Source of the DNA: a virus
Lineage: Duplodnaviria > Heunggongvirae > Uroviricota > Caudoviricetes
IMG/VR virus record: IMGVR_UViG_2718217885_000003
Location: 1 to 11,575 of that record
Length of the DNA: 11,575 nt
Strand: one strand, 5' to 3'
Shown here: positions 1 through 11,575 of the stretch, piece by piece
Numbering within the stretch: position 1 is the first letter of the stretch
How the letters are laid out: every line of letters starts with the position of its first letter
Position numbers and translations under genes: made by a program
Notes under the pieces: model-generated
The model's input: the letters and a program-made list of their open reading frames with translations, nothing else
Database searches by the model: none
What the model was told of the DNA's origin: nothing

Positions 1-303
1 TTACTTCCTGCGTTTATCCCGCTTTGTATGTCCGTGCTGAATGCCCCGCAGTGGATCTTCTTTTTTCAGGTCGATCCCCATGTCCGTTAGTGTTTTTGTG
101 GCGGCGGTTCTTATGGCACAAATCAGGTCTCTTTCCGGTTCCCGGGTTATGGTTGCCTTCCGGATACATGCCGTTCGTCGTTCCGTTACATACTGACGCG
201 CTTCATCACTTGCCGCCTGTTTCAGTAACTCACCCCAGCGATTAGCCGCCCGTCGCCATAAACCTTTCGCTTCCAGTTCTTCCGCTTTGTCATCATGCAC
301 CAT
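1..303 (-). CDS. PerC-family-like transcriptional regulator (candidate), 100 aa
   Basis: Complete ORF with TAA at 1-3 on the minus strand. ATG at 303 has GGGA about 8 nt upstream; an alternative in-frame ATG is at 309. The N-terminal segment KAEELEAKGLWRRAANRW resembles the PerC/Pch signature as recalled; not verified by search. Confidence 0.45.
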   Translation of the reverse strand: MVHDDKAEELEAKGLWRRAANRWGELLKQAASDEARQYVTERRTACIRKATITREPERDLICAIRTAATKTLTDMGIDLKKEDPLRGIQHGHTKRDKRRK

Positions 304-417
304 AAGCATAATCCCATTGATACCTGTTAAATCTGAATGGTTGGTTTCTGTTCTTTTGATAATTTTCCGTATAGCTTATTGTATGACAGTACTGTCCCAC
401 AATAAGGAGTTGCACGC

Positions 418-714
418 ATGAGAATGACCAGGCACAAAAAGCAGATCCTTGAGTTCTATAAACCAGAGTTCCGCGATTGCGTTAGGTTGGATGCTGGAGA
501 ACCGCCTTTTGACGTTCGGGGGGTTTCTTCTCTGCTCTATGGAGACACTCTGCGCTACCACATCGAGGCAACACGACGAACGTTAAACGCTATGGTAAAT
601 GATGGGATCCTGTACCGCGTGAAAGTGCGCGAACCCCGCTTTGATGTGCGTATCGGTAGCGATGGCGCTCACTGTACGGTAATCCGGTACGGGCTGGGTA
701 AATCAGATGATTAA
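418..714 (+). CDS. hypothetical protein, 98 aa
   Basis: ATG at 418 preceded by AAGGAG with 8-nt spacing; stop TAA at 712-714. Divergent from the PerC-like gene. No family recognised. Confidence 0.6.
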   Translation: MRMTRHKKQILEFYKPEFRDCVRLDAGEPPFDVRGVSSLLYGDTLRYHIEATRRTLNAMVNDGILYRVKVREPRFDVRIGSDGAHCTVIRYGLGKSDD

Positions 715-719
715 ATCAC

Positions 720-816
720 CAGAATGTAAATTTACATTCTGCCAGCCACCAGCTACAGAACGCAAATTTGCACTTTGCTGAAATATTAACGGGTTAGGCC
801 AGAGTGCAAATTTGCA
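720..816. promoter_or_regulatory. three palindromes with an AAATTT core between convergent genes (candidate protein-binding sites or bidirectional stem-loops)
   Basis: Perfect palindromes CAGAATGTAAATTTACATTCTG (720-741), GCAAATTTGC (762-771) and TGCAAATTTGCA (805-816). None is followed by a clear U-run. Confidence 0.35.
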
Positions 817-837
817 TTATGCTTTAAGTTCAGCAAG

Positions 838-1119
838 TTACCGCCGTAACCGCTCCGGCTTCTTCCACTGGTACGTTATTTTTGCTTTTTCCCTGTACGT
901 CTGTATCCGGCGACGGTAGGCCAGCATTTCAAGAACGCGGATCCGTATGTCGCGCATATCAGTATCATTAAGCTGGATACCATCACGACGCATCACCTCA
1001 GCAACAACACGCGCATAATTTTCAGCGGTCACGCTGTCCGGCTGTGTGGCCTGTTCGTCGGCTTGCTGGCTGATTCCACCAGCACGGCGGAGTAATTCCA
1101 GTATTTCGGCTTCTGTCAT
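838..1119 (-). CDS. hypothetical protein, 93 aa (ORF extends to an upstream ATG at 1131)
   Basis: ATG at 1119 preceded by a GGGGGG run (1123-1128 on the complement) with about 4-nt spacing; the upstream ATG at 1131 lacks an SD. Stop TAA at 838-840 on the complement. No family recognised. Confidence 0.5.
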   Translation of the reverse strand: MTEAEILELLRRAGGISQQADEQATQPDSVTAENYARVVAEVMRRDGIQLNDTDMRDIRIRVLEMLAYRRRIQTYREKAKITYQWKKPERLRR

Positions 1120-1154
1120 TGTGCCCCCCATCGTTCTGGCTGTCTGGTGTCGTC

Positions 1155-1228
1155 GGGTCCTTCCTGGAATTATGGCCCGTTACGGGGCGGCGACCTCGCG
1201 GTTTTTCACTATTTATGAGATTTTTTAG
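1155..1228 (+). other. lambda-type cos site, copy A: cosQ-like GGGTCCTTCCTGG, then cosN with the 12-nt cohesive-end sequence GGGCGGCGACCT at 1185-1196
   Basis: 1179-1206 GTTACGGGGCGGCGACCTCGCGGTTTTT matches the phage lambda cos junction from memory and continues with CACTATTTATGAGATTTT (lambda: CGCTATTTATGAAAATTTT). It is a perfect inverted copy of 1799-1826. Confidence 0.7.
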
Positions 1229-1385
1229 GGGGTGGTTGTTGTTTAATTGTTTGTCATATCTATTTGATAACTAAGTAAAAATAGAGAGCAATACAACAAC
1301 CTGATAGTGTTTTTTGATGCTACAAATAAAAAAAATGCTAATTGAATCAAATAGTTTTACAAAAATACGTGGTTGTTGTATTGCG
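1229..1385 (+). repeat. cosB-like region of cos copy A: three GGTTGTTGT repeats (direct, inverted, direct) with an AT-rich spacer
   Basis: GGTTGTTGT at 1234-1242, ACAACAACC at 1293-1301 and GGTTGTTGT at 1371-1379; 1288-1301 and 1371-1384 form a perfect 14-bp inverted repeat. The layout parallels lambda R3-I1-R2-R1 at similar distances from cosN. Confidence 0.5.
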
Positions 1386-1433
1386 TATTTGATGGCGTAA
1401 CAGAAAGTGATTTTGAACTTTGCTGTTCTGTGA

Positions 1434-1643
1434 CTACTGATTGTTCCATGCTGGCGCGGCGAACGCTTCGGCATGACGCCACCCAGCCAGAAAACCAGCC
1501 ATTTTATTTCGTGCTTTGCTCACATCTTCCGGTGAGTAGCCGTAAATCTGTAAACCTTCATTGAATCGATGTTCTGTTTCTTCACTTGAGTACTCGTCGC
1601 TCTCCGATGAAATCAGCCTGGCAACTTCAGTCTGCGTAGCCAC
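1434..1643 (-). CDS. hypothetical small protein, 69 aa, in the position lambda Nu1 occupies relative to cos copy B; candidate packaging-redirection (Rpp-like) factor
   Basis: GTG start at 1643-1641 with GAGGTGAGGA immediately upstream; stop TAG at 1434-1436 on the complement. It begins about 180 nt after the cosN of copy B. No HTH or other recognisable motif; acidic stretch SSESDEYSSEETEH. Confidence 0.4.
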   Translation of the reverse strand: MATQTEVARLISSESDEYSSEETEHRFNEGLQIYGYSPEDVSKARNKMAGFLAGWRHAEAFAAPAWNNQ

Positions 1644-1666
1644 TCCTCACCTCACAATCACGACAA

Positions 1667-1772
1667 AACCGGTCATGTCCGGTTTACATGTCTATTTTTT
1701 GCGCATGTCCGGTTCATGGAAAGCCTATTTTTATATTTTTCATATAGTTAACTTGCAGAGAAACCGGACATG
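1667..1772 (-). repeat. cosB-like region of cos copy B: three CATGTCCGGTT repeats with an AT-rich spacer
   Basis: CATGTCCGGTT at 1674-1684 (inside the inverted repeat AACCGGTCATGTCCGGTT, 1667-1684) and at 1704-1714; inverted copy AACCGGACATG at 1762-1772. AT-rich block 1717-1760. Distances from cosN (about 49, 107 and 140 nt) resemble lambda R3/R2/R1. Confidence 0.5.
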
Positions 1773-1782
1773 GATCCCGGAA

Positions 1783-1852
1783 AATTTTCATAAATAGCGA
1801 AAAACCGCGAGGTCGCCGCCCCGTAACAGGTCCATATGCCGGAAAGGACCCG
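1783..1852 (-). other. lambda-type cos site, copy B (minus orientation): cosQ-like GGGTCCTTTCCGG, cosN cohesive-end sequence at 1810-1821
   Basis: The reverse complement of 1781-1852 reads GGGTCCTTTCCGGCATATGGACCTGTTACGGGGCGGCGACCTCGCGGTTTTTCGCTATTTATGAAAATTTTCCGG, near-identical to the lambda cos junction as recalled. It lies directly downstream of the capsid-operon terminator. Confidence 0.75.
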
Positions 1853-1853
1853 C

Positions 1854-1875
1854 AAAAAAGCCGGATTTCTCCGGC
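1854..1875 (-). terminator. rho-independent terminator of the capsid operon
   Basis: On the minus strand, GCCGGAGAAATCCGGC stem-loop followed by TTTTTT, immediately 3' of the CDS ending at 1882. Confidence 0.8.
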
Positions 1876-1881
1876 CTTGTC

Positions 1882-2295
1882 TCAGATGGTTTTCAGTATG
1901 CGATCAATGTCGCCGTCATCGCCCGGGTTTCTGCCATCGTATGCCATGCCAGCTGATACGGCTTGTGGGCTGTGCATGTCCATAAAGTTTTCAAAGGCTG
2001 CGGTAAGCTCTGGTGCAACCTTCTGGCGTTCCTGTTCTATGGTCATGTTCAGGATGTTTTTAGCCGTATCAACATCAATACAAGGCACGTTTGCCATTGC
2101 ACGTAACAGCGGCTGATAGTCGTCAGATTCATAAAGCGACATAATCGCATCAGCGCGCGGCTTGTCCTGTTCTTCCAGTTTGTTAAGTTGATATATAGCT
2201 TCGTAGGTTGATAGACATCTGTCAGCCATTGCCCGCGCTTCAGCTTTAAATTTACTCGCCAGCGGTAGCGCCATGATACTTTCATTCGTTGCCAT
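1882..2295 (-). CDS. hypothetical protein, 137 aa, last gene of the capsid operon (possible scaffold or size-determination factor; unassigned)
   Basis: ATG at 2295 preceded by GGGGGGAACG (strong SD); the longer track ORF to 2406 overlaps the upstream gene and lacks an SD. Acidic, helix-prone composition. No family recognised. Confidence 0.6.
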   Translation of the reverse strand: MATNESIMALPLASKFKAEARAMADRCLSTYEAIYQLNKLEEQDKPRADAIMSLYESDDYQPLLRAMANVPCIDVDTAKNILNMTIEQERQKVAPELTAAFENFMDMHSPQAVSAGMAYDGRNPGDDGDIDRILKTI

Positions 2296-2308
2296 CGTTC
2301 CCCCCTGC

Positions 2309-2644
2309 TTATCGCGCCAGCGGCTGAACAGATACACCAGAACCCGCAAAGGCGGCACATTTTTTCGCGTCGGTGTCGACGCTCTCAGGCCAGTTAACGG
2401 CGGCAATATTGAATATCCCCGTCTTGTAACACTGTGCTGATTTCTGCGTTGACGTGTCCACGGGATACGCCGTCAGATAAACAGCCTTGCCAGATTCCTG
2501 ACCATCCCACGGCTTAAATTCGCCATTGTCCGCCAGCATCAGCGGGGTAAATTCCTGAATAACGCCAGCATCAGCGGCAAAATGTACCAGCGTCGTGGCA
2601 ACCTGCTGACTGCCTGCAAATAACTCAATGTATGGAGTGTCCAT
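2309..2644 (-). CDS. head decoration protein, lambda gpD-like, 111 aa
   Basis: Segment TPLMLADNGEFKPWDG...CYKTGIFNIAAVNWPE...KKCAAFAGSGVSVQ parallels lambda gpD (TPLMLDTSSRKLVAWDG...FYKSGTFRYEDVLWPE...KKRTAFAGTAISIV, from memory). SD GGGGGA 5 nt upstream of ATG 2644. Confidence 0.8.
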   Translation of the reverse strand: MDTPYIELFAGSQQVATTLVHFAADAGVIQEFTPLMLADNGEFKPWDGQESGKAVYLTAYPVDTSTQKSAQCYKTGIFNIAAVNWPESVDTDAKKCAAFAGSGVSVQPLAR

Positions 2645-2655
2645 AGAATCCCCCG

Positions 2656-3711
2656 TTAACCAATTTTGACGGTAACAAATTTGCGAATATCTGCCGGAAC
2701 CGGCTGCGGTGCGCTGTGCGTCTGCACGTACTCAATCGCCGGATCGCCGTCCTCAATCCAGTTTTTCGGGTAAAACATGTTTTGCGTTGCGCCCGTTCTG
2801 ACCGCTTCCTGATCCATAATCGCACCATAGGCCACCAGCCCTTTATTGTTGGTGTTGCCCAGGACCAGCAAATCAGGCTCAAGGAAATATTTTTCGGTGC
2901 CGTCGCTGTCAGTGTATTTGCCGGAATAGACGATAAGGGCAATATCGCCCAGATATCCTTTAAAGCTCACCACTTCGCCCAGGTTTTTACAGGCCAGCTC
3001 TGCGGAGGACTCTGAACCACGGGAAAGATCGTACAGTTCGCGGAATTTTTTAAAGCTGCGTAACGTTCGCCATACCTCAGCGCCCATGATCATGACGTTG
3101 GCGGGGCAACCTGCTTGATCCGCATAAAGCTCGATATCATAGATTGGATCGTGGGTTTCTTTGTCCTGCTCGGACCATTTACGGCCTTTGGCCTGCTCTA
3201 TGATGTTTTTTTCCGGTATCTTCCAGTCGATTTCATAGCGTTCTATGCCTTCGCCCTCAATGATGTTTTTTCCGGTCGTTACCGCATTCACCGCCAGCCA
3301 TTCCACGCGCGCTTTAATCGCGTTTATCTGGCGGCGCATGTTGCCAGTAATCAGGCGCATACGGCGATAGGTTGGGTCATTAAGCTGTGCCGGATCTTCT
3401 CCAGCCATACGCATGATGGTTTTCGTTGGATCGATTTCGTGCTTCGGCTTCATGTATCCAGGTTTAATCGTGCTGGTTTCGTACCCTTTATCGCGCTGGA
3501 CCTGACTACCCACCATAGGCGAACAAAACGCCGACATCGTAACCTCTTCAATGTCCAGGGTGTCCAGCATGATGCTTTGGGTGTTGAATGTCGCCACGTT
3601 CGGGAAAAACAGCGTGGTAAACAGCGGACTGAATTTAAATTCCGCAATATCCCCGCGATTCAGGTACGCGAAAAGCTGGTTAGTGTTAAGTGCCGTTGCT
3701 TTGCCTGCCAT
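2656..3711 (-). CDS. major capsid protein, lambda gpE family, 351 aa
   Basis: Multiple conserved blocks versus lambda gpE (from memory): FKFSPLF..LFF, PGYMKPKHEIDP, EDPAQLNDPTYRRMRLITGNMR, WSEQDKETHDP, LRSFK, SRGSESSAEL..LGEVVSFKGYLGDIALIVYSGKY, LVLGNTNNKGL.AYG, YPKNWIEDGDPA. Start ATG overlaps the upstream stop (TAATG). Confidence 0.9.
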   Translation of the reverse strand: MAGKATALNTNQLFAYLNRGDIAEFKFSPLFTTLFFPNVATFNTQSIMLDTLDIEEVTMSAFCSPMVGSQVQRDKGYETSTIKPGYMKPKHEIDPTKTIMRMAGEDPAQLNDPTYRRMRLITGNMRRQINAIKARVEWLAVNAVTTGKNIIEGEGIERYEIDWKIPEKNIIEQAKGRKWSEQDKETHDPIYDIELYADQAGCPANVMIMGAEVWRTLRSFKKFRELYDLSRGSESSAELACKNLGEVVSFKGYLGDIALIVYSGKYTDSDGTEKYFLEPDLLVLGNTNNKGLVAYGAIMDQEAVRTGATQNMFYPKNWIEDGDPAIEYVQTHSAPQPVPADIRKFVTVKIG

Positions 3712-3917
3712 TATTCACCCCCATAATTTTTATGCATCCCAAGCGCCGCAAGTAAATAAGAGCGTACAAGTGAACCTATCGACGGCTCCGGCGTCATCAG
3801 CGGATCCAGTCCAGCCGCCACGCCAGCCTCATAGTTTTTTTTGTGGCGTTGCTTGAGCACCTCCACGATTTCGGGGCTTATGTACACCGAAACACCGCCT
3901 TTTTTCTCTTCAGCCAT
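3711..3917 (-). CDS. ribbon-helix-helix (CopG/Arc-like) DNA-binding protein, 68 aa, first gene of the capsid operon; putative regulator
   Basis: GVSVYISPEIVEVLKQ (beta strand plus helix A) and SIGSLVRSYLLAAL (helix B) fit the RHH pattern. ATG at 3917 with GAGG upstream; stop coupled to the capsid gene start. Confidence 0.5.
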   Translation of the reverse strand: MAEEKKGGVSVYISPEIVEVLKQRHKKNYEAGVAAGLDPLMTPEPSIGSLVRSYLLAALGMHKNYGGE

Positions 3918-3944
3918 AGTAAGAAATTCCTCTTTGACTTAAAA

Positions 3945-4005
3945 AATCATAACTGGATGTTCATCCAGTTATGATTATAATCATCATTGCATTTTATGCA
4001 ATGAT
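3945..4005. promoter_or_regulatory. operator-like palindromes overlapping a candidate sigma70 promoter for the capsid operon
   Basis: Perfect 32-bp palindrome AATCATAACTGGATG-TT-CATCCAGTTATGATT (3945-3976) and 23-bp palindrome ATCATTGCAT-TTT-ATGCAATGAT (3983-4005). Minus-strand TATAAT (complement of 3974-3979) and TTGCAT (complement of 3996-4001) with a 16-bp spacer overlap the two palindromes. Confidence 0.45.
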
Positions 4006-4080
4006 GTTGAGTTGTGTTGCAAATTATGAAATGATGATCCCGATCATGTGTGTCAGTGCACCAAAAAGCCTCATATGCAA

Positions 4081-4119
4081 AAGCCCGATAAGCCACCTCT
4101 GACCTTATCGGGCTTTTTT
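4081..4119 (+). terminator. rho-independent terminator (strong on plus strand, weaker on minus)
   Basis: AAGCCCGATAAG ... CTTATCGGGCTT, a 12-bp stem with an 11-nt loop, followed by TTTTTT on the plus strand. No annotated plus-strand gene lies upstream, which suggests a short plus-strand transcript from the 3920-4080 region. Confidence 0.6.
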
Positions 4120-4220
4120 ATCTGCCTGCAAAGATGTCGAACAAAAATTAACCGCAACCATCATCTTTTTTGCATCAAAACAATTAAAAACAATAAATTA
4201 CGCTCATGATGATGATGACG

Positions 4221-4292
4221 ATAAAATCACAAAAATGCGCTTTTTTCCGCGCCTCCCGCCCCGTGTTCAGGCCCACCCCGCCAGGAGGACCC
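4221..4292 (-). repeat. diverged third cos-like copy (cosQ-like GGGTCCTCCTGG retained, cosN core altered)
   Basis: Aligns base for base with the cos copy B region (GATAAAATCACAAAAATGCGC vs GGAAAATTTTCATAAATAGCG; CCCGCCCCGTGTTCAGG vs CGCCGCCCCGTAACAGG; GGAGGACCCG vs GAAAGGACCCG), but the cohesive-end segment is changed. It sits next to a homologous terminator. Confidence 0.5.
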
Positions 4293-4294
4293 GT

Positions 4295-4316
4295 AAAAAA
4301 GCCGGATTGCTCCGGC
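4295..4316 (-). terminator. rho-independent terminator after ssb
   Basis: On the minus strand, GCCGGAGCAATCCGGC followed by TTTTTT, 17 nt after the ssb stop. Sequence is homologous to the terminator at 1854-1875. Confidence 0.8.
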
Positions 4317-4332
4317 TTCTGTCACTCGTCGC

Positions 4333-4755
4333 TTAAAACGGTATGTTATCCCCGTACGGATCATCATTCCCCGCCTGTTGTTTTGCCCTGTTCAGCGCGT
4401 CAGTAGCCTGGCCCTGTTGACCTTTTTTGCCGCCCAGTCGCGCCGTTCGCGCACTGATTACACTGTCTGCGATAACCTGCCAGCCCTGCCGCGTTTCTCC
4501 GTTCTGCCCAGTCCACTGGCTGATCTGCATGTTACCCGCCACGCTCAGGAGTTCACCCTTGCGGTGCCTTTCCAGTGCTTCGGCCTGTCTGCCAAATGCC
4601 AGGACGGATAACCACATCGTCGCCGTTCCGTCATCTGCCTGGCTGCACGGAAGGGGGACCGCCATACGCGCCAGCGTCATCGGTGTGCCCTTGCTGGTCT
4701 GTTTTACCTGCGGGTCGTCCACCAGCCGCCCGTAAGCGGCTATCTGTGCTGTCAT
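4333..4755 (-). CDS. ssb: single-stranded DNA-binding protein, 140 aa
   Basis: OB-fold-like N-terminal region (GRLVDDPQV...MWLSVLAFGRQAE...KGELLSVAGNMQISQW...NGETR), Gly/Gln-rich linker, and C-terminal acidic tip DDPYGDNIPF resembling the SSB DDDIPF tail. ATG overlaps the upstream stop (ATGA). Confidence 0.7.
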   Translation of the reverse strand: MTAQIAAYGRLVDDPQVKQTSKGTPMTLARMAVPLPCSQADDGTATMWLSVLAFGRQAEALERHRKGELLSVAGNMQISQWTGQNGETRQGWQVIADSVISARTARLGGKKGQQGQATDALNRAKQQAGNDDPYGDNIPF

Positions 4756-5030
4756 GATTCCACCTCTCCGGTTTTAACGTTGATTGTTGTTACCTGTTCC
4801 GCTTCGGCAATCTCCCGCTCTGTCAGCGTGGCAAAATTTGCCGCCGTCGTGGTCATGAATGCGCTTATCAGGTCGGGATGTGCTTTCGCGTATCCTTCCC
4901 CCGCGTGGCGGTCTATCGTTCTGATTGCCACCTTTAAAGCGTGCTCTGTCATGTCTAACGCGCGATATTTCGGTTCTGTTCTGTCTCTGCGTTTTTTGAG
5001 TGATTTATTAAATTTCCCTGAAGTGTGCAT
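4752..5030 (-). CDS. hypothetical protein, 92 aa
   Basis: ATG at 5030 with GAGGGGG about 12 nt upstream. Translationally coupled to ssb. Located just downstream of the iteron origin. Confidence 0.5.
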   Translation of the reverse strand: MHTSGKFNKSLKKRRDRTEPKYRALDMTEHALKVAIRTIDRHAGEGYAKAHPDLISAFMTTTAANFATLTEREIAEAEQVTTINVKTGEVES

Positions 5031-5078
5031 ATTTATTTTTACCCCCTCGTTTAAAAAGTTTTGAGTTGTGCCTCCCCT

Positions 5079-5306
5079 TGTCTACCTTATCTACCTTAGT
5101 GGCCCTCATGCCAGTAATGGCGCGGCTTTCAGCGGGGTAGAGTGCTTTTATCCACTATCTACCCCGTGTCTACCTCCCTGTCTGATTCAGGTAAAATCAG
5201 GTAGAGAGGGTAGATAGTGGGTAGACAGTAAAAAAAGGCTATCTACCTAACTTAATGCACTGAATTAAATTTATTTTTCTTTACTCAGGTAGACAGGGTA
5301 GACAGC
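5079..5306. repeat. iteron array, candidate replication origin, immediately 3' of the primase gene
   Basis: At least 11 copies of GGTAGA(C/T)AG and its complement in both orientations (for example 5081-5089, 5090-5098, 5134-5142, 5156-5163, 5168-5175, 5200-5205, 5209-5216, 5219-5228, 5241-5248, 5288-5296, 5297-5305), with AT-rich blocks at 5250-5285 and 5306-5330. Confidence 0.7.
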
Positions 5307-5318
5307 AATTACAAAAAA

Positions 5319-7073
5319 TTATAAAAACGCGTCGCACTCGTCTGTTGTTATTGCGTTAGTCTGCGTTACTCCCTTAACTTTCCGCGTAATATATTCATGT
5401 CCGTAAACTTTCGCGGCTGGCTTCATAGCCTTGCCAAAGTCATTTACGTTTAGCGGTTTGCTCCTGCCTGCGTACGCCATAAACGCCAGATAGACGCGGT
5501 AAAGGCTGTTTCTGGTCGTGTACTTCACTGAATCGCCACCGCCGCCCATCATCAGGCCGCGTGCTTCCTCCAGAAAATTCAGGAACTGGCAAAACTCAAT
5601 AACCGGATCCGTCTGTTGCTTTATTGCCAGAGCTTCATCACCGTCACGCTGTTCCAGTAGTAAAGCCCGTGCCTTCTCAGGGTCGGTAAAGTTCGCCAGC
5701 AATCGGCGGATAATGACAGGGATTTCAGCCGCGATCTTTTCCGGTAGCTCCCTGTCTTTTTCGGCCTCACTGACGATATTGTCGAAACGGAAAATCACGC
5801 GACGACGTGCCACACCTCCGGCCCGTTCGGTGAATATCATCGGGTTATTGTTGGTCGCCAGCACCACCGCCCTGATTACAGCCGTGAAACGCTTTTCGTA
5901 TTTCGGGTTAATTTCCACGGGGTCACCGCCCGTGATTTTCTTGATGCCCGTTCCTTCGCCTGTATATTTCGGCTGGTCAGCCAGGACGATAAGACGACTC
6001 CCGACAACCTGCGCACGTCCACCAGCATCATCAAGCGACGTCATTTCAGCGCTTACCGTGTTCTGTTTCCCTGCCAGAAGGCTGGCTATGTGCGTGAATG
6101 TACTTTTACCGCTCCCGCCATCTCCGGTGGCCTCAATAAACATCTGCCAGTCGTACCGGTTCGCCATAATCATGTACAGCGCGGCACATATACGCATCAT
6201 CTTGCGCGGGTCTTTTCCGGCTGCGTGCTCAAGCCATTTATGAAAGTTTGGCGCGTTATCGCGGATGTTCTCCCCTGGTGCTGGTGGCGTGTACTCAATG
6301 CCGTTGTGCGTGGTGATCCAGTTCTCCGGCGTGTGCGGGGAAAATTCCCCCGTTTTCAGGTCAAGCGCACCATTGGCGAACGGCAGCAAATCGCCGGACG
6401 GCTCGCCCATTGGTTCGGCAATAACTTTTAACGCTTCCACGGCGTTATTGATTACGCGCTTGCTGAAAGTGGCCCTGTGCTCTGAATAGATCGCCACCAT
6501 TTCGCGGCTAAGTTCCATTGTGCTGACCGGACACCATACCCCGCCGCGCCATACGTGAACGATTTCACTTTCAGGATGTACGCAAACGCCATCAAAGCGA
6601 TCGGCAAGCAGCTGCGCGCGTTCACTGTCCGCCATCTGCGAAAGTTGCGCCTTTTGCTTTACCGGAAGCTCAATGACCAGACCATCAGAAAGATTCTGGC
6701 GCTCACGGGCCAGATATTCGCGCCAGTTCTCCACCTTCTGACCGTGCATACCATCAGGGTAAAAATTTGCATCCTGTACGCCTGCCGCCGCCAGCTTCTG
6801 GCCAATCGCCTTTATCATTACTGGCGCAAGATATCCGGCCCTGTATATGCGTGCTGATTTTCGGCCTTCCGGCACAATTTGCAGATTATCCAGTTCGGAT
6901 AGCTGCTGCTCCCCAAGCCACACAGGAGGCTCATTATCTCCGGCCATACGCGCATCATGTTCCTGCCATTGTTTCGCGTGTGACCAGGCATCACTACCCG
7001 CAAAAATAATGACTTCTGTTTCTTTGTGTTTTATGCCGCGTGACTGCTGTTTTACGTTCGGTGCCAGTTTCAT
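5319..7073 (-). CDS. primase/helicase-type replication initiator (P4 alpha / PICI Pri-Rep-like), 584 aa
   Basis: Walker A GDGGSGKST and Walker B-like LIVLAD in the C-terminal half; N-terminal primase-like region. Followed by the iteron array. ATG overlaps the upstream stop (ATGA). Confidence 0.85.
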   Translation of the reverse strand: MKLAPNVKQQSRGIKHKETEVIIFAGSDAWSHAKQWQEHDARMAGDNEPPVWLGEQQLSELDNLQIVPEGRKSARIYRAGYLAPVMIKAIGQKLAAAGVQDANFYPDGMHGQKVENWREYLARERQNLSDGLVIELPVKQKAQLSQMADSERAQLLADRFDGVCVHPESEIVHVWRGGVWCPVSTMELSREMVAIYSEHRATFSKRVINNAVEALKVIAEPMGEPSGDLLPFANGALDLKTGEFSPHTPENWITTHNGIEYTPPAPGENIRDNAPNFHKWLEHAAGKDPRKMMRICAALYMIMANRYDWQMFIEATGDGGSGKSTFTHIASLLAGKQNTVSAEMTSLDDAGGRAQVVGSRLIVLADQPKYTGEGTGIKKITGGDPVEINPKYEKRFTAVIRAVVLATNNNPMIFTERAGGVARRRVIFRFDNIVSEAEKDRELPEKIAAEIPVIIRRLLANFTDPEKARALLLEQRDGDEALAIKQQTDPVIEFCQFLNFLEEARGLMMGGGGDSVKYTTRNSLYRVYLAFMAYAGRSKPLNVNDFGKAMKPAAKVYGHEYITRKVKGVTQTNAITTDECDAFL

Positions 7074-7369
7074 TTTTTACCCCTGAATCCTTTAATCATG
7101 GTTTTCATCTTCTGAATATTGGCGCGTGCTTTCTCCCTGCTGGTTGGTTTACTGCGGGGCGCTGCCTGTACCAGAGAAAAATCACGCCGGAACTGATAAA
7201 CAGGCATCACGCAATCATATTCGTAACCTTCACGGCGGTAAGTTACGCACCGTCCCGCCACGCCCTTAATCATTACCGTGCCGCCGTACTGGTCGCGGTA
7301 AATATCACCGCGCGTAAATTTAGGGTGAGTGTTGCCACTGGCAGTTAAGCCAGAATATTTAAGTTTCAT
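7070..7369 (-). CDS. hypothetical protein, 99 aa
   Basis: ATG at 7369 with GGAG upstream; coupled to the primase start. Shares the N-terminal pentapeptide THPKF, encoded by an identical 16-nt DNA segment, with the gene at 7909-8277. Confidence 0.55.
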   Translation of the reverse strand: MKLKYSGLTASGNTHPKFTRGDIYRDQYGGTVMIKGVAGRCVTYRREGYEYDCVMPVYQFRRDFSLVQAAPRSKPTSREKARANIQKMKTMIKGFRGKK

Positions 7370-7447
7370 TATTTTTATTCTCCGGTGTGCTGTTCTTTAT
7401 ATCTGTCGTGCAATGTTTCTATTTCCTGCGATTCATTTATTACAGGC

Positions 7448-7687
7448 TCAAGAAGCGTTATTAATGCCGCGACAATTCGGGATTTTTCTTAAATCGACTT
7501 CTGCCACATATTCCGCATAATCAGCGGTGATATTTAGTACATCAAACCCCGTTGTTTTATTTTCTTTCGTGCCAAGTAAGAAAAAGGCCGCTCTTATCAG
7601 TTCGGATATTGACGAAAGCGCATCACTCGCATCATCAGATACGCCGGAAAATTCCTGTTTCAGGAAATTAAAACGATCATCACGCAT
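7448..7687 (-). CDS. hypothetical protein, 79 aa
   Basis: ATG at 7687-7685 directly preceded by a G8 run acting as an SD-like element; overlaps the stop of the upstream gene by 8 nt (ATGCGTGA). The track ORF extends to a TTG at 7714. Confidence 0.45.
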   Translation of the reverse strand: MRDDRFNFLKQEFSGVSDDASDALSSISELIRAAFFLLGTKENKTTGFDVLNITADYAEYVAEVDLRKIPNCRGINNAS

Positions 7688-7919
7688 AACCCCCCCCATT
7701 TTCACAATCAGCAATCAGGATGGCTTTAGCCTCATTCAGTGCCATTTCAGCGGTAAGCTGTGCGTAGGCCAGCGAATGGGGGATTATTGCCCCTGTATAT
7801 TCCGGCTCTCTGGTAATGTGTTTTTCTGCGGTTGCTGCCGTGCATGAAATATCAATCAGCGCATCCATCAGCGTTTTGATGGCTTCGGCGGCTGCGTCCG
7901 GACGGGGGTTATTGCACAT
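7680..7919 (-). CDS. hypothetical protein, 79 aa
   Basis: ATG at 7919 with AGGAGG 7 nt upstream; overlaps the 3' end of the upstream gene by 11 nt. Confidence 0.55.
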   Translation of the reverse strand: MCNNPRPDAAAEAIKTLMDALIDISCTAATAEKHITREPEYTGAIIPHSLAYAQLTAEMALNEAKAILIADCENGGGYA

Positions 7920-8277
7920 GGCGCACCTCCTGACGAATACGGGCGGCGAATACCATCACGCAGCCAGCCGGGGATTGCTGGCGGGCTTCCTGTTCGCTGG
8001 TGGCCTCAATGGTAATCACGCGCGGTTGTGCCGTGCTCAGGGCGATAAAACGCCAGATAAAATTGTTTTCGCATTTCTGAATAAACAACGTGTTTTCTTC
8101 GCGCCCTTTCCATGTTGCCGAGATATAGCCCATGTCATTGAGCATCTCGCAGGCATCAACCAGCGTATCGGCGGCTACATGTACAGTGTTTTTACCGTCA
8201 GCTATGCAATCACGGTGCACCGCCAGGAAGGTGTATATAAATTTAGGGTGAGTTTGGGTATGCTGTGTTCCAGCCAT
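7909..8277 (-). CDS. hypothetical protein, 122 aa, first gene of the replication operon
   Basis: ATG at 8277 with AGGAG 8 nt upstream. It is the 3' part of a spurious 562-aa track ORF (7909-9597) whose upstream portion is antisense to the plus-strand cassette. Confidence 0.6.
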   Translation of the reverse strand: MAGTQHTQTHPKFIYTFLAVHRDCIADGKNTVHVAADTLVDACEMLNDMGYISATWKGREENTLFIQKCENNFIWRFIALSTAQPRVITIEATSEQEARQQSPAGCVMVFAARIRQEVRHVQ

Positions 8278-8306
8278 AATCGTTACTCCTATTAACGGTT
8301 TGGTTA

Positions 8307-8448
8307 GAAGCCCCGTTACTGCTCCAACAGTGCGGGGCTTCGTCGTTTCAATTGCTGAATTGCATGTATCAGCCCTTGTGGTATTCAGATTACATTTTGG
8401 TGAATACCATTTCAAGTCTTTTTTGGTATTCACTTTTGTATTACACTG
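8307..8448. promoter_or_regulatory. divergent control region: stem-loop plus TGGTATTCA repeats
   Basis: Stem-loop GAAGCCCCG...CGGGGCTTC at 8307-8341. TGGTATTCA at 8379-8387 and 8425-8433, with inverted copy TGAATACCA at 8401-8409 (9-bp inverted repeat, 13-bp spacer). Lies between divergent genes starting at 8277 (minus) and 8477 (plus). Confidence 0.4.
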
Positions 8449-8476
8449 CATCCCGTTATTAATCGGAGGTGCAAAC

Positions 8477-8782
8477 ATGTCCACGAGTTCTGTTAACAAT
8501 AAATCACAGCAACTGAATGCCAGATTTCCACATGAAGTAGTGAGTGGCATTGAGGCATCCCTACAGCCAGGGGAAACTAAAGCGAATTTTATAGTTACGG
8601 CTGTACGCGGTGAGATCGCCCGCCGCCAGGCAGAAGGAAGCGGAGAAAACCCCCTGGTTTCTTCGCTCGATGCACTGGCGCAGGTGGAAAAAATCGGAGT
8701 CAAAGCTGCCGAGGAGATCGGGCAGCTCGTCACCGTCGCACGTGAAGAACTACAGCGCCGCAAGGCCAAAGAATCAGAATAA
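8477..8782 (+). CDS. ribbon-helix-helix-like DNA-binding protein, 101 aa, first gene of the counter-oriented cassette
   Basis: ATG at 8477 with GGAGGTG 7 nt upstream; double stop TAATAA. QLNARFPHEVVSGIEASL ... TKANFIVTAVRGEIARRQ fits a strand-helix-helix pattern. The longer track ORF from 8300 has no SD. Confidence 0.55.
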   Translation: MSTSSVNNKSQQLNARFPHEVVSGIEASLQPGETKANFIVTAVRGEIARRQAEGSGENPLVSSLDALAQVEKIGVKAAEEIGQLVTVAREELQRRKAKESE

Positions 8783-8839
8783 TAACTATCATCGCCGTGG
8801 TGTGAGGAACTCCGGCGCATTGCTTTACAGGTACACAGA

Positions 8840-9022
8840 ATGACCAACAACGAATCAACCAATACACCATCACCGGCACGGAAAAGACAGCGCAGAAAGA
8901 TAGCGCATGAGCATGAGTCAGAAAGATTCGCACCATGTGCTTTTGCTCTTGAGAAATTCCTAAAAGAGTACAGGAAAACGCGCCCATTGCAGGTATGGCA
9001 ACGTAACGAACAAAAAGGTTGA
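8840..9022 (+). CDS. hypothetical small basic protein, 60 aa
   Basis: ATG at 8840 with AGGT about 7 nt upstream. Lys/Arg-rich. Same reading frame as the two following small ORFs. Confidence 0.35.
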   Translation: MTNNESTNTPSPARKRQRRKIAHEHESERFAPCAFALEKFLKEYRKTRPLQVWQRNEQKG

Positions 9023-9025
9023 TGT

Positions 9026-9157
9026 ATGACCAGGAAGCAGACAGATAACAAACCATTGCTACCAGAGAATAAATCAGCGGGATTTTTACCGGAAAAAGTG
9101 CTACATGAGCTAAAATTCCGCCAGCGTAAAAAATCCAAAGAAACAGACAAAGAATAA
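9026..9157 (+). CDS. hypothetical small basic protein, 43 aa (below the ORF-track size cutoff)
   Basis: ATG at 9026, 3 nt after the TGA of the preceding ORF (TGATGTATG), same frame; ends TAA at 9155-9157. Translation read manually: MTRKQTDNKPLLPENKSAGFLPEKVLHELKFRQRKKSKETDKE. Confidence 0.25.
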   Translation: MTRKQTDNKPLLPENKSAGFLPEKVLHELKFRQRKKSKETDKE

Positions 9158-9160
9158 CTT

Positions 9161-9325
9161 ATGCACCAAATACTATACTGGCTCGGATCTCTGTTTGTAT
9201 TTGCATTTCTCATGAAATATTGCATTAGCAATGAACCTGCCGACAATGAAAGTACATGCGGGAGTGCTGAAAAAGATATTCCACCTCTCGTATATGAAAA
9301 TGAAAGCCCTGTGCACCGCAATTGA
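9161..9325 (+). CDS. hypothetical small membrane peptide, 54 aa (single predicted transmembrane helix)
   Basis: ATG at 9161, 3 nt after the preceding TAA, same frame. Manual translation MHQILYWLGSLFVFAFLMKYCISNEPADNESTCGSAEKDIPPLVYENESPVHRN has a 19-residue hydrophobic N-terminal segment. A terminator follows at 9423-9450. Confidence 0.3.
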   Translation: MHQILYWLGSLFVFAFLMKYCISNEPADNESTCGSAEKDIPPLVYENESPVHRN

Positions 9326-9422
9326 GCGAAATTTAATGAATTCACTCTTTGCCCACCAGCCGCAAATGTGGCATTGTTGGCAATGCTCATGCGTTGGGGA
9401 TAACGTGTAGCTTGTGTCGAAT

Positions 9423-9450
9423 GGCCACCGTAGCAGGTGGCCTTTGTTTT
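9423..9450 (+). terminator. rho-independent terminator of the plus-strand cassette
   Basis: GGCCACC-GTAGCA-GGTGGCC followed by TTTGTTTT. Confidence 0.75.
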
Positions 9451-9488
9451 GCCTGTTATCCGGCAATTGTGGCGCTTCGTCACACGGT

Positions 9489-9574
9489 TGATATAATTCC
9501 CCTGCACTGATCCATTTTTTTCGCAGCAGGTTAATTGTTCACAAGGGCGCTCCGGCAACGGGGCGCTTTTTGTT
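9489..9574 (+). ncRNA. candidate small RNA (about 70 nt) between an extended -10 promoter and a second plus-strand terminator, opposite the 3' end of alpA
   Basis: TGATATAAT (9489-9497) fits the extended -10 pattern TGnTATAAT. Terminator GCGCTCCG-GCAA-CGGGGCGC plus TTTTTGTT at 9547-9574. No ORF of meaningful length between them. Confidence 0.2.
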
Positions 9575-9601
9575 ATGTTCATTGCGTTACACCTCACACC
9601 A

Positions 9602-9808
9602 TTACGCAGCCGTTCCGCGCGCTTCTTCCTCGCGTTCTTTCAACCAGGCCCGCACCTCATCTTCATACCAGCCAACACGGCGCAGACCGATTTTGAAGCC
9701 TTTCGGGAATTTTCCGGCGTTGATCATGTCCTGTAGCGAACTGTCTGCCTTGATGCGCAGAATATTTTTTACTTCCTGACGGGTAAGAATTTTTCTGATT
9801 ACTTCCAT
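9602..9808 (-). CDS. alpA: AlpA-family (Phage_AlpA, MerR-like HTH) transcriptional regulator/excisionase-like protein, 68 aa
   Basis: LTRQEVKNILRIKADSSLQDMINAGKFPKGFKIGLRRVGWYEDEVRAWL matches the AlpA pattern (HTH, then K/R-rich wing ending in W-x-x-E-V-x-x-W). Sits between int and the replication operon. Confidence 0.85.
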   Translation of the reverse strand: MEVIRKILTRQEVKNILRIKADSSLQDMINAGKFPKGFKIGLRRVGWYEDEVRAWLKEREEEARGTAA

Positions 9809-9850
9809 CGTGTTTTACCTCGTTAATCCGGCGTATTCCGGTGATAAATA

Positions 9851-9913
9851 CGGTAAAACAGGGCAGGGCGGGAAAAACAGTACTCACCGTTTTAAAACGG
9901 TACTCACTGTTTT
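9851..9913. promoter_or_regulatory. direct repeats and palindrome upstream of alpA (candidate operator/promoter elements)
   Basis: GTACTCAC(C/T)GTTTT at 9880-9893 and 9900-9913 (20-bp periodicity); perfect palindrome CCGTTTTAAAACGG at 9887-9900; related CGGTAAAACAGG at 9851-9862. Confidence 0.35.
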
Positions 9914-9942
9914 TTATCTCATTGATTACGCTTTCTTTTTGC

Positions 9943-9972
9943 AAAAAAATAGCGACCGCAAGGGGCCGCTAT
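9943..9972 (-). terminator. rho-independent terminator after the int-proximal small ORF
   Basis: On the minus strand, ATAGCGGCC-loop-GGTCGCTAT (9 bp with one G-U pair) followed by TTTTTTT, starting 6 nt after the stop at 9978. Confidence 0.65.
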
Positions 9973-9977
9973 TGTGA

Positions 9978-10220
9978 TTACCGTTTCCACTTCTTAGGTC
10001 GCCCACCACATTTAAGGCTGGTGGGCCTCAGCACCTTGTCGATGCTTTCAGCCAGATTTTTCGATGCGCCACGCGAGCGTAAAAAACTGACTACCTCGTG
10101 TTTTGTGGGGGCTGTTGATTTGTCTTCCGGATCGTATGTTGACCAGAATTCACGATTTGCCATTAACGCCAGTTGCAGCCCTTCACCGCAGACATTGGAT
10201 GATTTTTCGTGCCAGACCAT
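9978..10220 (-). CDS. hypothetical protein, 80 aa, between int and alpA
   Basis: ATG at 10220 with a weak SD; an internal ATG (MANREF...) is an alternative start. A dedicated terminator directly downstream supports expression. No family recognised. Confidence 0.45.
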   Translation of the reverse strand: MVWHEKSSNVCGEGLQLALMANREFWSTYDPEDKSTAPTKHEVVSFLRSRGASKNLAESIDKVLRPTSLKCGGRPKKWKR

Positions 10221-10333
10221 TTCAATAAATCTCGATTTCTCATGAGTCGGGTTTTTCCTTGTCTGTTGAGGAGATCGGCGATTATACGATGGTTTAGCAT
10301 GGTTTGCACTGGTTGTACTGGTTTTTTGTACAG

Positions 10334-11575
10334 TTACACCGCACGGATACCCCTTTTACCACTGGCTATGGTCACTCCGGTTGCTGCGGCTTCCACAAAT
10401 TCACCCCACCAGCGCATAAGTACTACACGTTTTTCCAGGTAGTTACTTCGGTTATATGCCCGCCTTACCTCGTTCGTGTCCACGTGTGCGAGCGCGGCCT
10501 CGATTACGTCCGGCTCGAATCCTTCCTCGTTCGCTGCTGTGCTGAATATGGCGCGTAATCCGTGAGACACCAGCACACCAGCGTAACCCATCCGGCGCAA
10601 TGCGGCGTTAGCGGTCTGGCTGCTCATTGGCAGCATCGGGTTTTTAAGGCTGGGAAAAACGTGTTCTCTGTGTGCGCTGATTGGCTTCATGGTTTCCAGT
10701 ACAGCCATAGCCTGACCACAAAGGGGGATCACATGGTCACGGCGCATCTTCATGCGTCCGGCTGGAATCGTCCAGGTTTCGGCATCGAGATCTATTTCTT
10801 CCCAGCGTGCGGCGGCTGCTTCGGCTGGGCGTGCTACGGTCAGCAGTTGCCACTCAATCAGCAATCTGGTTTGCCGTTCTATGCTGGCGACCGATAAATC
10901 GTGCATTAGCTGCGGTAGCTGTTCCGGTCGGATGGTTGGCATGTGCTTTTTGGTGGGTGAGGGGAATGCCTTGCGGACGTTCGCGGCGGTGTTGATGTCA
11001 ATCAGCCCACTGTTGGCAGCAAAATCCATCACTTCATTGATGCGTTGTAAAACGCGTTTCAGGGTTTCCAGGTTGCCGCGTACTTTAATGGGTGTGAGTA
11101 TCTCAACAAAGCGGCGAGCGGTGAGGGTATCTATTGGCGTGTTTCCGATGTACGGGAATACGTATTTTTCCAGGGAACGCCAGATATCCTTAATCGTGTT
11201 GTAAGCCAGATTCTGGCCTTTTTTCATCTCGTACCAGTCCGAGGCAACTTTCTCGAACGTGTTGCCCTTTTTTCGGCTCTCTGCTTCACGTTTCCGGCGT
11301 TCGTGGTCCTGTGGGTCAGTTCCCTTTGCTATGAGTGACCTGTATTCATTCCGTCGCTCTCTGGCATCAGACAGGGAAACATCATTCAGCGATCCAAGGC
11401 TGATAATAGTCCGTTTTTTATCTGCCGGACGGTAGTACGTAAAACGCCAGATTTTTGATCCGGAGGGCTTCACCAGAAGAAATAATCCTCCGCCATCCTG
11501 CAGGGTGTATTCCTTTTCCCCTGGTCGTGCGTTTTTGATCTCCGTAATAGTTAGTGGGGTGGTTTTTCGTGCCAT
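10334..11575 (-). CDS. int: tyrosine site-specific integrase, P4/CP4-57 type, 413 aa
   Basis: N-terminal arm-binding region (GEKEYTLQDGGGLFLLVKPSGSKIWRFTYY) and C-terminal catalytic residues (ARPAE Arg, HGLRAIFST His-x-x-Arg, LAHV His, RRAYNRSNY Tyr). The start codon is the last triplet of the window, so the true start could lie further upstream outside it. Confidence 0.95.
   Translation of the reverse strand: MARKTTPLTITEIKNARPGEKEYTLQDGGGLFLLVKPSGSKIWRFTYYRPADKKRTIISLGSLNDVSLSDARERRNEYRSLIAKGTDPQDHERRKREAESRKKGNTFEKVASDWYEMKKGQNLAYNTIKDIWRSLEKYVFPYIGNTPIDTLTARRFVEILTPIKVRGNLETLKRVLQRINEVMDFAANSGLIDINTAANVRKAFPSPTKKHMPTIRPEQLPQLMHDLSVASIERQTRLLIEWQLLTVARPAEAAAARWEEIDLDAETWTIPAGRMKMRRDHVIPLCGQAMAVLETMKPISAHREHVFPSLKNPMLPMSSQTANAALRRMGYAGVLVSHGLRAIFSTAANEEGFEPDVIEAALAHVDTNEVRRAYNRSNYLEKRVVLMRWWGEFVEAAATGVTIASGKRGIRAV

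Follow-up and report, generated by a model that had tools for sequence, protein, structure and literature searches.

The DNA analyzed here is the IMG/VR virus record IMGVR_UViG_2718217885_000003 (positions 1 to 11,575; this whole stretch of 11,575 nucleotides is referred to below as the window), and the element that it carries is, with high confidence, a satellite, namely, a classical Gram-negative phage-inducible chromosomal island (PICI) of the EcCICFT073 type, integrated at tRNA-Pro. On its minus strand, at positions 1882 to 3917, lies a four-gene capsid operon coding for a small protein of 68 amino acids (p68), a major capsid protein (MCP), a decoration or cement protein, and a protein of 137 amino acids (p137) that looks like a Nu3-type scaffold. 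In bacteriophage lambda, E is the shell protein, Nu3 is the scaffold, and D is the cement protein. We propose that the operon provides a matched shell kit that would be assembled on the portal of a lambdoid helper phage, and we give this combined statement of identity and mechanism a probability of about 45%; its identity part is near certain, and its mechanistic part has about one chance in three. The capsid operon is a published and widespread feature of classical E. coli PICIs, and the capsid genes, the absence of portal and terminase genes beside them, and a crystal structure of the MCP have all been documented previously. What is added here is modest: the Nu3-like scaffold assignment, quantified linkage and selection, the conserved operon leader, and a variant with a truncated rpp gene and a phage-type cosB.

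Results

The capsid operon and the sequences that border it are as follows.

1845-1875, minus strand: terminator-like hairpin GCCGGAGAAATCCGGC with a T-run, which closes the operon (reading of the sequence)
1882-2295, minus strand: p137, acidic and helical, homolog of the C/Nu3 scaffold domain without the protease (PHROG, pairwise alignment, and hhalign)
2309-2644, minus strand: head decoration (cement) protein, 111 amino acids, lambda gpD/phage 21 SHP family, ortholog of EcCICFT073 c1500
2656-3711, minus strand: MCP, 351 amino acids, lambda gpE family, HK97 fold (Pfam PF03864), ortholog of EcCICFT073 c1499
3711-3917, minus strand: p68, first gene of the operon (phrog_3255, function not known)
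3918-4125, minus strand: conserved leader/promoter region of the operon, common to the islands of strains Nissle and CFT073

A first-pass annotation, made from the letters, had named a gpE-family MCP and a gpD-like decoration protein in this operon, and its genes and coordinates were confirmed by Pfam, RefSeq, and PDB searches; all four open reading frames (ORFs) agree with the RefSeq annotation of E. coli GB089, whose chromosome is 100% identical to the window. The MCP matches Pfam Phage_cap_E (PF03864) over profile positions 14 to 328 of 329 (E 3e-52), and it is 43.6% identical to lambda E, 46.6% identical to PhiR12 E, and 96.9% identical to CFT073 c1499. Its structure matches are PDB 3BQW (E 1e-233) and the lambda capsid 7VI9 (E 4e-83), and the closest MCPs among 50,697 phage genomes are less than 50% identical to it. 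The decoration protein belongs to Pfam HDPD (PF02924; E 2e-18) and matches PDB 1TD0 (E 3e-14) and 1C5E (E 4e-10), its best solved relative being phage 21 SHP; it is 38% identical to lambda D, 37.6% identical to PhiR12 D, and 97.3% identical to CFT073 c1500. The order E then D, also given at first pass, is as described, and with the gene for p137 behind them, the three genes stand in the reverse of the lambda order Nu3-D-E. NCBIfam has no family for any protein of the capsid module.

It is of note that 3BQW, which carries the PDB title "Putative capsid protein of prophage," is a structural genomics crystal structure of what is essentially the island MCP. It served as the molecular-replacement model for the capsid protein of phage YSD1, where it was described as a putative prophage protein, and its satellite origin is mentioned in none of the retrieved papers that cite 3BQW.

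The first-pass annotation had also described p137 as acidic and helical, which agrees with its isoelectric point of 4.5 and an all-helical AlphaFold2 (AF2) model (predicted local distance difference test score [pLDDT], 50), and had put it forward as a possible scaffold, a suggestion that is now backed by homology to the C/Nu3 domain. When p137 was compared with phrog_53 (head maturation protease), the match was confined to positions 493 to 567 of 583, past the protease domain (E 5e-8). Residues 49 to 131 of p137 align to residues 416 to 493 of the 501-amino-acid C/Nu3 protein of PhiR12 with 32.5% identity, and the S49 peptidase domain of this protein ends at about residue 293. An exhaustive HMMER search with p137 returned 8 relatives among 1.8 billion representative proteins and was useful through two of them, P0065 and P0066. 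The latter is a stand-alone protein of 195 amino acids that is 50% identical to residues 302 to 501 of PhiR12 C and 47% identical to the lambda Nu3/C repeat, and it aligns to p137 over 114 residues. An hhalign comparison of the p137 family with scaffold domains gave a probability of 96.2% (E 2e-9, 75 columns), and the match spans the last repeat unit and a shared F-E-x-F-M-x-x-H-S-P motif. On this evidence, p137 looks like a Nu3-type scaffold homolog with no protease, built of about two scaffold repeat units plus a C-terminal F-E-x-F-M-x-x-H-S-P tail. This assignment is an addition of the present analysis, and no such name for the gene was found in the literature searched. The CFT073 ortholog is 92% identical to p137. 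A tblastn search with p137 against the 50,697 phage genomes gave no match at 1e-3, a sequence search against the PDB gave nothing meaningful, and the AF2 model, at a pLDDT of 50, was not good enough for comparison by fold.

In RefSeq, p137 (WP_065275723.1) goes by the name "phage head-tail connector protein" in many genomes, GB089 among them, and by "hypothetical protein" in Nissle and CFT073. The connector name was backed by no search and conflicts with the C/Nu3 scaffold homology; it is probably a propagated misannotation.

The first gene of the operon, p68, has a stop codon that overlaps the start of the MCP gene. It gave no Pfam, NCBIfam, or PDB match and no tblastn match in the same phage genomes at 1e-2. 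Its AF2 monomer (pLDDT 72), with a coil at residues 1 to 14 and helices at residues 15 to 34 and 47 to 59, is compatible with a ribbon-helix-helix (RHH) fold and is not diagnostic of it, and a Foldseek search of the model against the PDB gave no match with an E value of <1 and no RHH match; the RHH label that has been attached to this gene is thus unverified. The leader palindromes would suit a role as autoregulator, which is circumstantial. Within the block, p68 evolves fastest, being 68% identical to its CFT073 counterpart and 56% identical in a divergent lineage, with a ratio of nonsynonymous to synonymous substitution rates (dN/dS) of about 0.4. It occurs as two allelic types that are about 68% identical, one in the window and the other in CFT073 and Nissle, while the rest of the block is 94 to 97% identical at the DNA level. 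This divergence points to mosaic exchange or faster evolution, and it could reflect a variable interaction partner.

For linkage and selection, we collected 80 satellite-sized IMG/VR loci with p137 as the query. The MCP and the decoration protein were present in every one (80/80 each) and p68 was present in 78/80, with intact ORFs in 75 to 79 of the 80, whereas tblastn with A, B, and C of lambda and PhiR12 detected a portal, protease, or TerL (the large terminase) in only 1 to 3 of them. The dN/dS values were 0.07 to 0.13 for the MCP, 0.09 to 0.30 for the decoration protein, and 0.15 to 0.25 for p137, indicating at the sequence level that the module is under purifying selection and is functional by evolutionary criteria. 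The divergent lineage, represented by locus L088, has the same layout, with identities of 84% for the MCP, 83% for the decoration protein, 56% for p68, and 41% for p137. Since phage MCPs are less than 50% identical, the gene order is reversed, and p137 and p68 have no tblastn match in phages, the module appears to have resided in satellites for a long time rather than to have been captured recently. The element has matches in 2559 of 5426 complete E. coli genomes, that is, nearly half. Two scans of genome contigs, one with p137 and one with the MCP, gave no confirmed locus, and the IMG/VR loci were used for the distribution. Five p137 loci (L026, L050, L072, L074, and L086) lie in larger IMG/VR contigs of 20 to 54 kb; they possibly represent PICIs embedded in a helper or islands that have captured late-gene clusters.

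The assignment of the element follows from its borders, its gene content, and its likeness to EcCICFT073. According to the annotation of the identical GB089 sequence, the left flank consists of a yejO pseudogene followed by narP/ccm/nap genes and the right flank consists of tRNA-Pro, yejM, and yejL, with core chromosomal genes beyond both ends. About 550 bp to the left of the window, the tRNA-Pro 3' end recurs in imperfect form (spotted by eye), which gives an element of about 12.3 kb; a search for exact direct repeats as att sites found none. Pfam and annotation revealed no portal, protease, large terminase, tail, or lysis genes in the island or adjoining it. In agreement with the satellite nature put forward at first pass, no head-gene set was found in the sequence beyond the window ends. 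The idea of a prophage fragment was rejected, because both flanks are core chromosome. The accompanying statement that portal, protease, terminase, and scaffold are all missing holds for the portal, the protease, and TerL; it is not quite right for the scaffold, because p137 is itself scaffold-like, and a C-terminal remnant of Rpp, a homolog of the small terminase TerS, is present at 1434 to 1643. The backbone modules of the island are as follows.

9602-11575, minus strand: integration and regulation module (integrase and AlpA), next to tRNA-Pro (Pfam and annotation)
10334-11575, minus strand: tyrosine integrase (Pfam Phage_integrase with arm-binding domains), adjoining tRNA-Pro
9602-9808, minus strand: AlpA-family regulator (PF05930, E 7e-9)
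4333-7369, minus strand: replication module with a DUF4222 protein, a D5_N/P4-type primase, a 92-amino-acid protein, and SSB (Pfam and annotation)
5319-7369, minus strand: primase (D5_N, DUF5906, and Pox_D5 domains)
4333-5030, minus strand: 92-amino-acid protein and SSB (annotation)

The order on the minus strand is integrase, AlpA, an Icd-like gene with small ORFs, DUF4222, primase, the 92-amino-acid protein, SSB, and the capsid operon, beyond which lie the cos region, a 69-amino-acid ORF, a second cos site, a 97-amino-acid gene, and a PerC-family gene. The core features of PICIs found here are an integrase near att, AlpA, a primase-replicase, an MCP-like gene, the lack of tail, lysis, portal, and TerL genes, and a size of about 12.3 kb (10 to 15 kb is expected). 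Of the small-terminase homolog (Rpp/TerS), the 69-amino-acid chimera is all that is left, and because the winged-helix domain of Rpp is missing, the island is a degraded or variant member of the group; the published PICI scheme permits elements short of one component (PMC10085698). None of the genes that mark a capsid-forming PICI (cfPICI), namely, portal, prohead protease, head-tail adaptor/connector, and TerL, is in the island. The primase of the Nissle relative is annotated as the P4-family type; P4-like core genes (Sid, Psu, and Delta) were absent from general Pfam, PHROG, and NCBIfam scans of the ORFs, in which no dedicated P4 models were run.

EcCICFT073 is the prototype Gram-negative cos-type PICI (Fillol-Salom et al. 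2018 ISME J, PMC6092414; 2019 Mol Cell), and its helper-dependent induction, packaging, and transfer have been demonstrated (PMC6092414). Like the window, it has int, alpA, Icd-like genes, DUF4222, primase, SSB, p68, MCP, decoration protein, p137, cos, rpp, a second cos, and a gene of about 94 codons, and the capsid blocks have the same gene lengths (207, 1056, 336, and 414 bp). The primases are 99% identical, and both islands have two inverted cos sites. The c1499 product was reported as a capsid protein and the c1500 product as a head decoration protein (Fillol-Salom et al. 2018, PMC6092414). EcCICFT073 sits between roxA and phoQ, whereas the island described here is at tRNA-Pro/yejM, a site at which Nissle 1917 has an island of the same architecture. 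Compared with EcCICFT073, the window has PerC at the far end, a p68 that is 68% identical, an rpp gene without the DNA-binding half, a phage-type cosB, and an extra Stx-type cos-like site.

The capsid operon appears from its borders to be a separate transcription unit, with a conserved leader and flanking terminator-like hairpins. In order, the leader contains a hairpin at 4117 to 4080, the perfect palindrome ATCATTGCAT-aaa-ATGCAATGAT, a candidate promoter TTGCAT-16-TATAAT with a weak -35 element, a hairpin with a 14-bp stem and a T-run at 3976 to 3945, and then the ribosome binding site and start codon. The 3976-3945 hairpin (dG -22 kcal/mol, z -4.6) was also picked up by a terminator scan; a sigma-70 scan at its thresholds reported no promoter in the leader, the TTGCAT-16-TATAAT pair having been assigned by eye alone. 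The leader, about 200 bp long, is kept across 51 distinct versions from 79 loci, and its makeup suggests that expression of the operon is regulated, possibly in an antitermination-dependent or attenuated manner. A near copy of the closing hairpin GCCGGAGAAATCCGGC follows ssb at about 4286 to 4316 (repeat family D2, 94% identity).

The packaging sites and the remnant of rpp are as follows.

1650-1844, minus strand: cos site beside the capsid operon, with cosQ and cosN common to lambda, PhiR12, and other PICIs
1434-1643, minus strand: 69-amino-acid chimeric ORF, remnant of Rpp (TerS homolog), made of the first ~12 codons of phage Nu1 and the C-terminal half of RppA
1186-1226, plus strand: second cosN copy, inverted, 90% identical to lambda bases 1 to 41
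4250-4316, minus strand: third, variant cos-like site (ACGGGTCCT, 21-22 nt, ACGGGGCGGGAGGCGCGG), between ssb and the capsid operon

The cos region at 1650 to 1844 is 97.8% identical to the lambda left end and 93% identical to the PhiR12 cos/Nu1 region. In alignments, cosQ and cosN are shared and, from cosN onward, the window follows the PhiR12 cosB; its cosB is thus of the phage-21/PhiR12 type, and CATGTCCGG elements occur in it three times, at 1674, 1704, and 1764 (0.09 expected). Positions 1186 to 1226 and 1779 to 1827 form a 40-nucleotide inverted repeat with 97.5% identity; two cos sites have already been published for EcCICFT073 (PMC6739421). The cosN copies of CFT073 and Nissle flank rpp/terS-like genes, and the intervening segment is different in the window: the 69-amino-acid ORF is 83% identical to residues 1 to 12 of PhiR12 Nu1 and 87% identical to residues 77 to 130 of the L088 Rpp, and comparison with CFT073 RppA shows that it is without the winged-helix DNA-binding domain. 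While phage-type cos/Nu1 regions of about 90 to 95% identity occur in more than 1100 genomes, the rpp-truncated, phage-cosB arrangement was found in 3 of the 5426 complete E. coli genomes. The sequence suggests that, through recombination with a helper, the island exchanged packaging by way of Rpp for direct mimicry of cosB; since rpp is truncated and cosB is of the helper type, this copy probably relies on direct cosB recognition and not on redirection by Rpp. In Stx1/Stx2 phages, the intergenic sequence immediately preceding terS is about 90% identical to the third site. The Nissle island has this site too, whereas CFT073 lacks it at that position, and another type of helper may use it for packaging. 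By simple arithmetic, four island copies (4 x 12.3 kb) make 49 kb, or about one lambda-sized headful, and this tetramer size fits the published phage-sized packaging.

Discussion

Capsid-family genes are the commonest phage late genes of Gram-negative PICIs. Of 29 reference Gram-negative PICIs, 21 carry an MCP gene (PMC10111431), and SatelliteFinder counts "capsid morphogenesis" among its five core components of PICIs (PMC10085698). With the recognition of the scaffold, what had seemed to be a stray capsid homolog becomes a matched scaffold, shell, and cement set under purifying selection, and this makes its function easier to test.

We propose that the operon encodes a matched shell kit, consisting of a Nu3-like scaffold without protease, a gpE-family MCP, and a gpD-family cement protein, preceded by p68. 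Upon induction of the island by a lambdoid helper, the hairpin-guarded leader of the operon would drive its transcription, and the three kit proteins would assemble on the helper portal, either alone or mixed with helper subunits. The shell would then be matured by the helper C protease and filled by the helper terminase at the island cos sites, after which the island cement protein would stabilize the head and helper tails would finish the particle. A cement protein is, to our knowledge, of use solely on a finished, DNA-filled head. Dependence on a helper is pointed to by the lambda/21-type cos sites and the lack of portal, protease, and TerL genes, and since the island is without these genes, their products must come from the helper. 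Heads made by the helper can accommodate multimers of the island (4 x 12.3 kb), for which reason the module would be accessory and not essential, and its benefit may be visible solely with particular helpers or under particular conditions. What we infer in this model is that the kit proteins are built into particles and make use of the portal and protease of the helper, as well as how the operon is regulated.

Several points weigh against this proposal. Deletion of c1499 or c1500 left the transfer of EcCICFT073 driven by the resident prophages and its interference with lambda unaltered, the authors state that no phenotype was found for c1499, and islands with c1499::cat and c1501::tetA remain transferable (PMC6092414); in particular, these ortholog deletion data weigh against an essential role for the shell swap that the first-pass annotation had suggested as a possibility (PMC6092414). 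All of the DNA packaged by lambda was phage-sized (PMC6092414; PMC6893505), and we found no published particle composition with a PICI MCP in virions. An MCP that is 44 to 47% identical to helper E also puts in question nucleation on the helper portal and acceptance of the helper protease. The p137 model is of low confidence (pLDDT 50) and its family is tiny (8 representatives); because of this weak model and small family, the scaffold assignment rests on some 75 aligned residues. The promoter and regulation of the capsid operon are putative. The leader showed no similarity to the Q-dependent late regions of PhiR12 and the CFT073 prophage, and because it has no likeness to such Q-downstream regions, the idea of a Q-antiterminated late promoter stays speculation.

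Parts of the proposed kit have counterparts in known systems. The head genes C-Nu3, D (SHP), and E of lambda and phage 21 belong to the same three families as those of the island (scaffold domain, cement protein, and HK97-fold shell). The island proteins differ in being 30 to 47% identical to these and in having the order E-D-scaffold, about two repeat units, and no fused S49 protease, and the island is without portal, protease, terminase, W, FI, and FII. Like the island MCP, Ccm of SaPIbov5 is a diverged homolog of the helper MCP in a portal-less cos-type satellite (PMC8569155). Ccm forms pentamers and redirects capsid shape (PMC8569155); it acts alone and yields small isometric capsids, whereas the island MCP has its own scaffold and cement genes and a c1499-type ortholog caused no size change with lambda. 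CpmB of SaPI1, similar to p137, is an internal scaffold-like protein of a satellite, with a C-terminal end that resembles the helper scaffold (PMC6893505). CpmB remodels the helper MCP only, whereas p137, known here from sequence, adjoins a cognate MCP gene.

The rival that fares best, although we consider it doubtful, is that the scaffold, MCP, and cement protein are decoys that sabotage helper head assembly instead of building heads. According to this idea, p137 would compete with helper C/Nu3 for a docking site on E, as SaPI1 CpmB does with the 80alpha scaffold, the MCP would enter helper shells as a poison subunit or make dead-end shells that have no portal, and the D homolog would fill cement sites without stabilizing phage genomes. 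The F-E-x-F-M-x-x-H-S-P region that p137 shares with helper-type C proteins makes a common docking site plausible, and SaPIbov5 Ccm is a precedent for a satellite MCP homolog that suppresses its helper (PMC8569155; PMC6893505). Deletion of c1499 or c1500 did not relieve interference with lambda; however, EcCICFT073 Rpp alone blocks lambda (PMC6739421) and could mask a second mechanism, so that single deletions would be silent if the effect were redundant with Rpp, and the island described here, with its truncated Rpp, would need another mechanism of interference. It is harder to reconcile with a decoy that a poison needs no three matched partners and no cement protein, that the MCP and the decoration protein are the most conserved members in the divergent lineage (84% and 83%), and that no small or aberrant size class of DNA was seen with lambda.

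A stronger form of the shell-kit proposal is that the kit is self-sufficient, so that with natural 21/PhiR12-type helpers the whole shell would be satellite encoded, possibly with a different size, and the portal, protease, terminase, and tail would be borrowed. We regard this form as rather unlikely. If true, it would be a third capsid strategy, apart from capsid remodeling and full capsid formation, and its importance might be greatest for variants that, like this one, have a defective rpp and depend on a phage-type cosB.

Distinctly less probable is an insurance role, in which the island would supply shell proteins when those of the helper are missing, limiting, or targeted, as when helper E is interrupted by an embedded PICI, when the helper is a defective prophage, or when host defenses sense the helper capsid. 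Helper-embedded PICIs integrate in the prophage capsid gene E and carry an E-family gene of their own, which the authors described as a "backup intact copy" (PMC10111431), and 1 to 3 of the 80 loci are located in large contigs that resemble prophages and have portal or protease matches. The absence of a phenotype with intact helpers would fit a conditional role. However, the present island is at a tRNA gene and not within a prophage, an MCP with 44 to 47% identity is no obvious drop-in for helper E, and a backup should track the helper sequence, whereas no phage MCP is more than 50% identical.

The first-pass annotation had placed the element between classical PICIs and cfPICIs, with the shell alone being swapped, and we consider such an intermediate very improbable. 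It does have more head genes than islands of the Staphylococcus aureus pathogenicity island type and fewer than cfPICIs (10.1101/2022.09.08.507074). With cfPICIs of the EcCIEDL933 type, it shares an int-alpA-primase backbone and its own MCP, but cfPICIs also encode portal, protease, connectors, HNH, TerS, and TerL and make their own small capsids (10.1101/2022.09.08.507074), and none of those genes is found here. The placement proved wrong because the element is of the classical type itself: the same block is present in EcCICFT073 with 97/97/92% protein identity, and its layout is the classical Gram-negative PICI architecture. In addition, PICI and cfPICI capsid genes are nearly perfectly separated in phylogenies, and the cfPICI capsid and TerL genes arose from phages independently (PMC10085698). 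A functionless remnant of a decaying prophage, which the deletions without phenotype might suggest, has hardly any credence in view of the strong purifying selection, the intact ORFs in 75 to 79 of 80 loci, the conserved leader, and a layout that is kept even in the lineage with a scaffold of 41% identity.

Other features of the island

An Rfam scan of the whole window with E values up to 0.01 returned nothing, and PADLOC returned nothing for ten small ORFs. The accessory region at 7375 to 9600, in which RefSeq lists frameshifted or partial pseudogenes between the Icd-like and DUF4222 genes, is 76 to 86% identical to its Nissle counterpart or cannot be aligned with it. A 562-amino-acid ORF on the minus strand (7909 to 9597), which runs over genes annotated on the opposite strand (YlcI/YnfO family and others), is probably spurious. 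At the other end of the window, a plus-strand ORF of 98 amino acids (418 to 714) had no family match. The basic 97-amino-acid protein at 838 to 1131 belongs to phrog_1561 (function not known) and follows the cos region in 63 of the 80 related loci. The PerC-family gene lies at the far left end here (1 to 309, past cos), whereas in EcCICFT073 (L006, 29960 to 30208) it lies between ssb and the capsid operon, and this difference in placement implies that the order of modules has been rearranged between close relatives.

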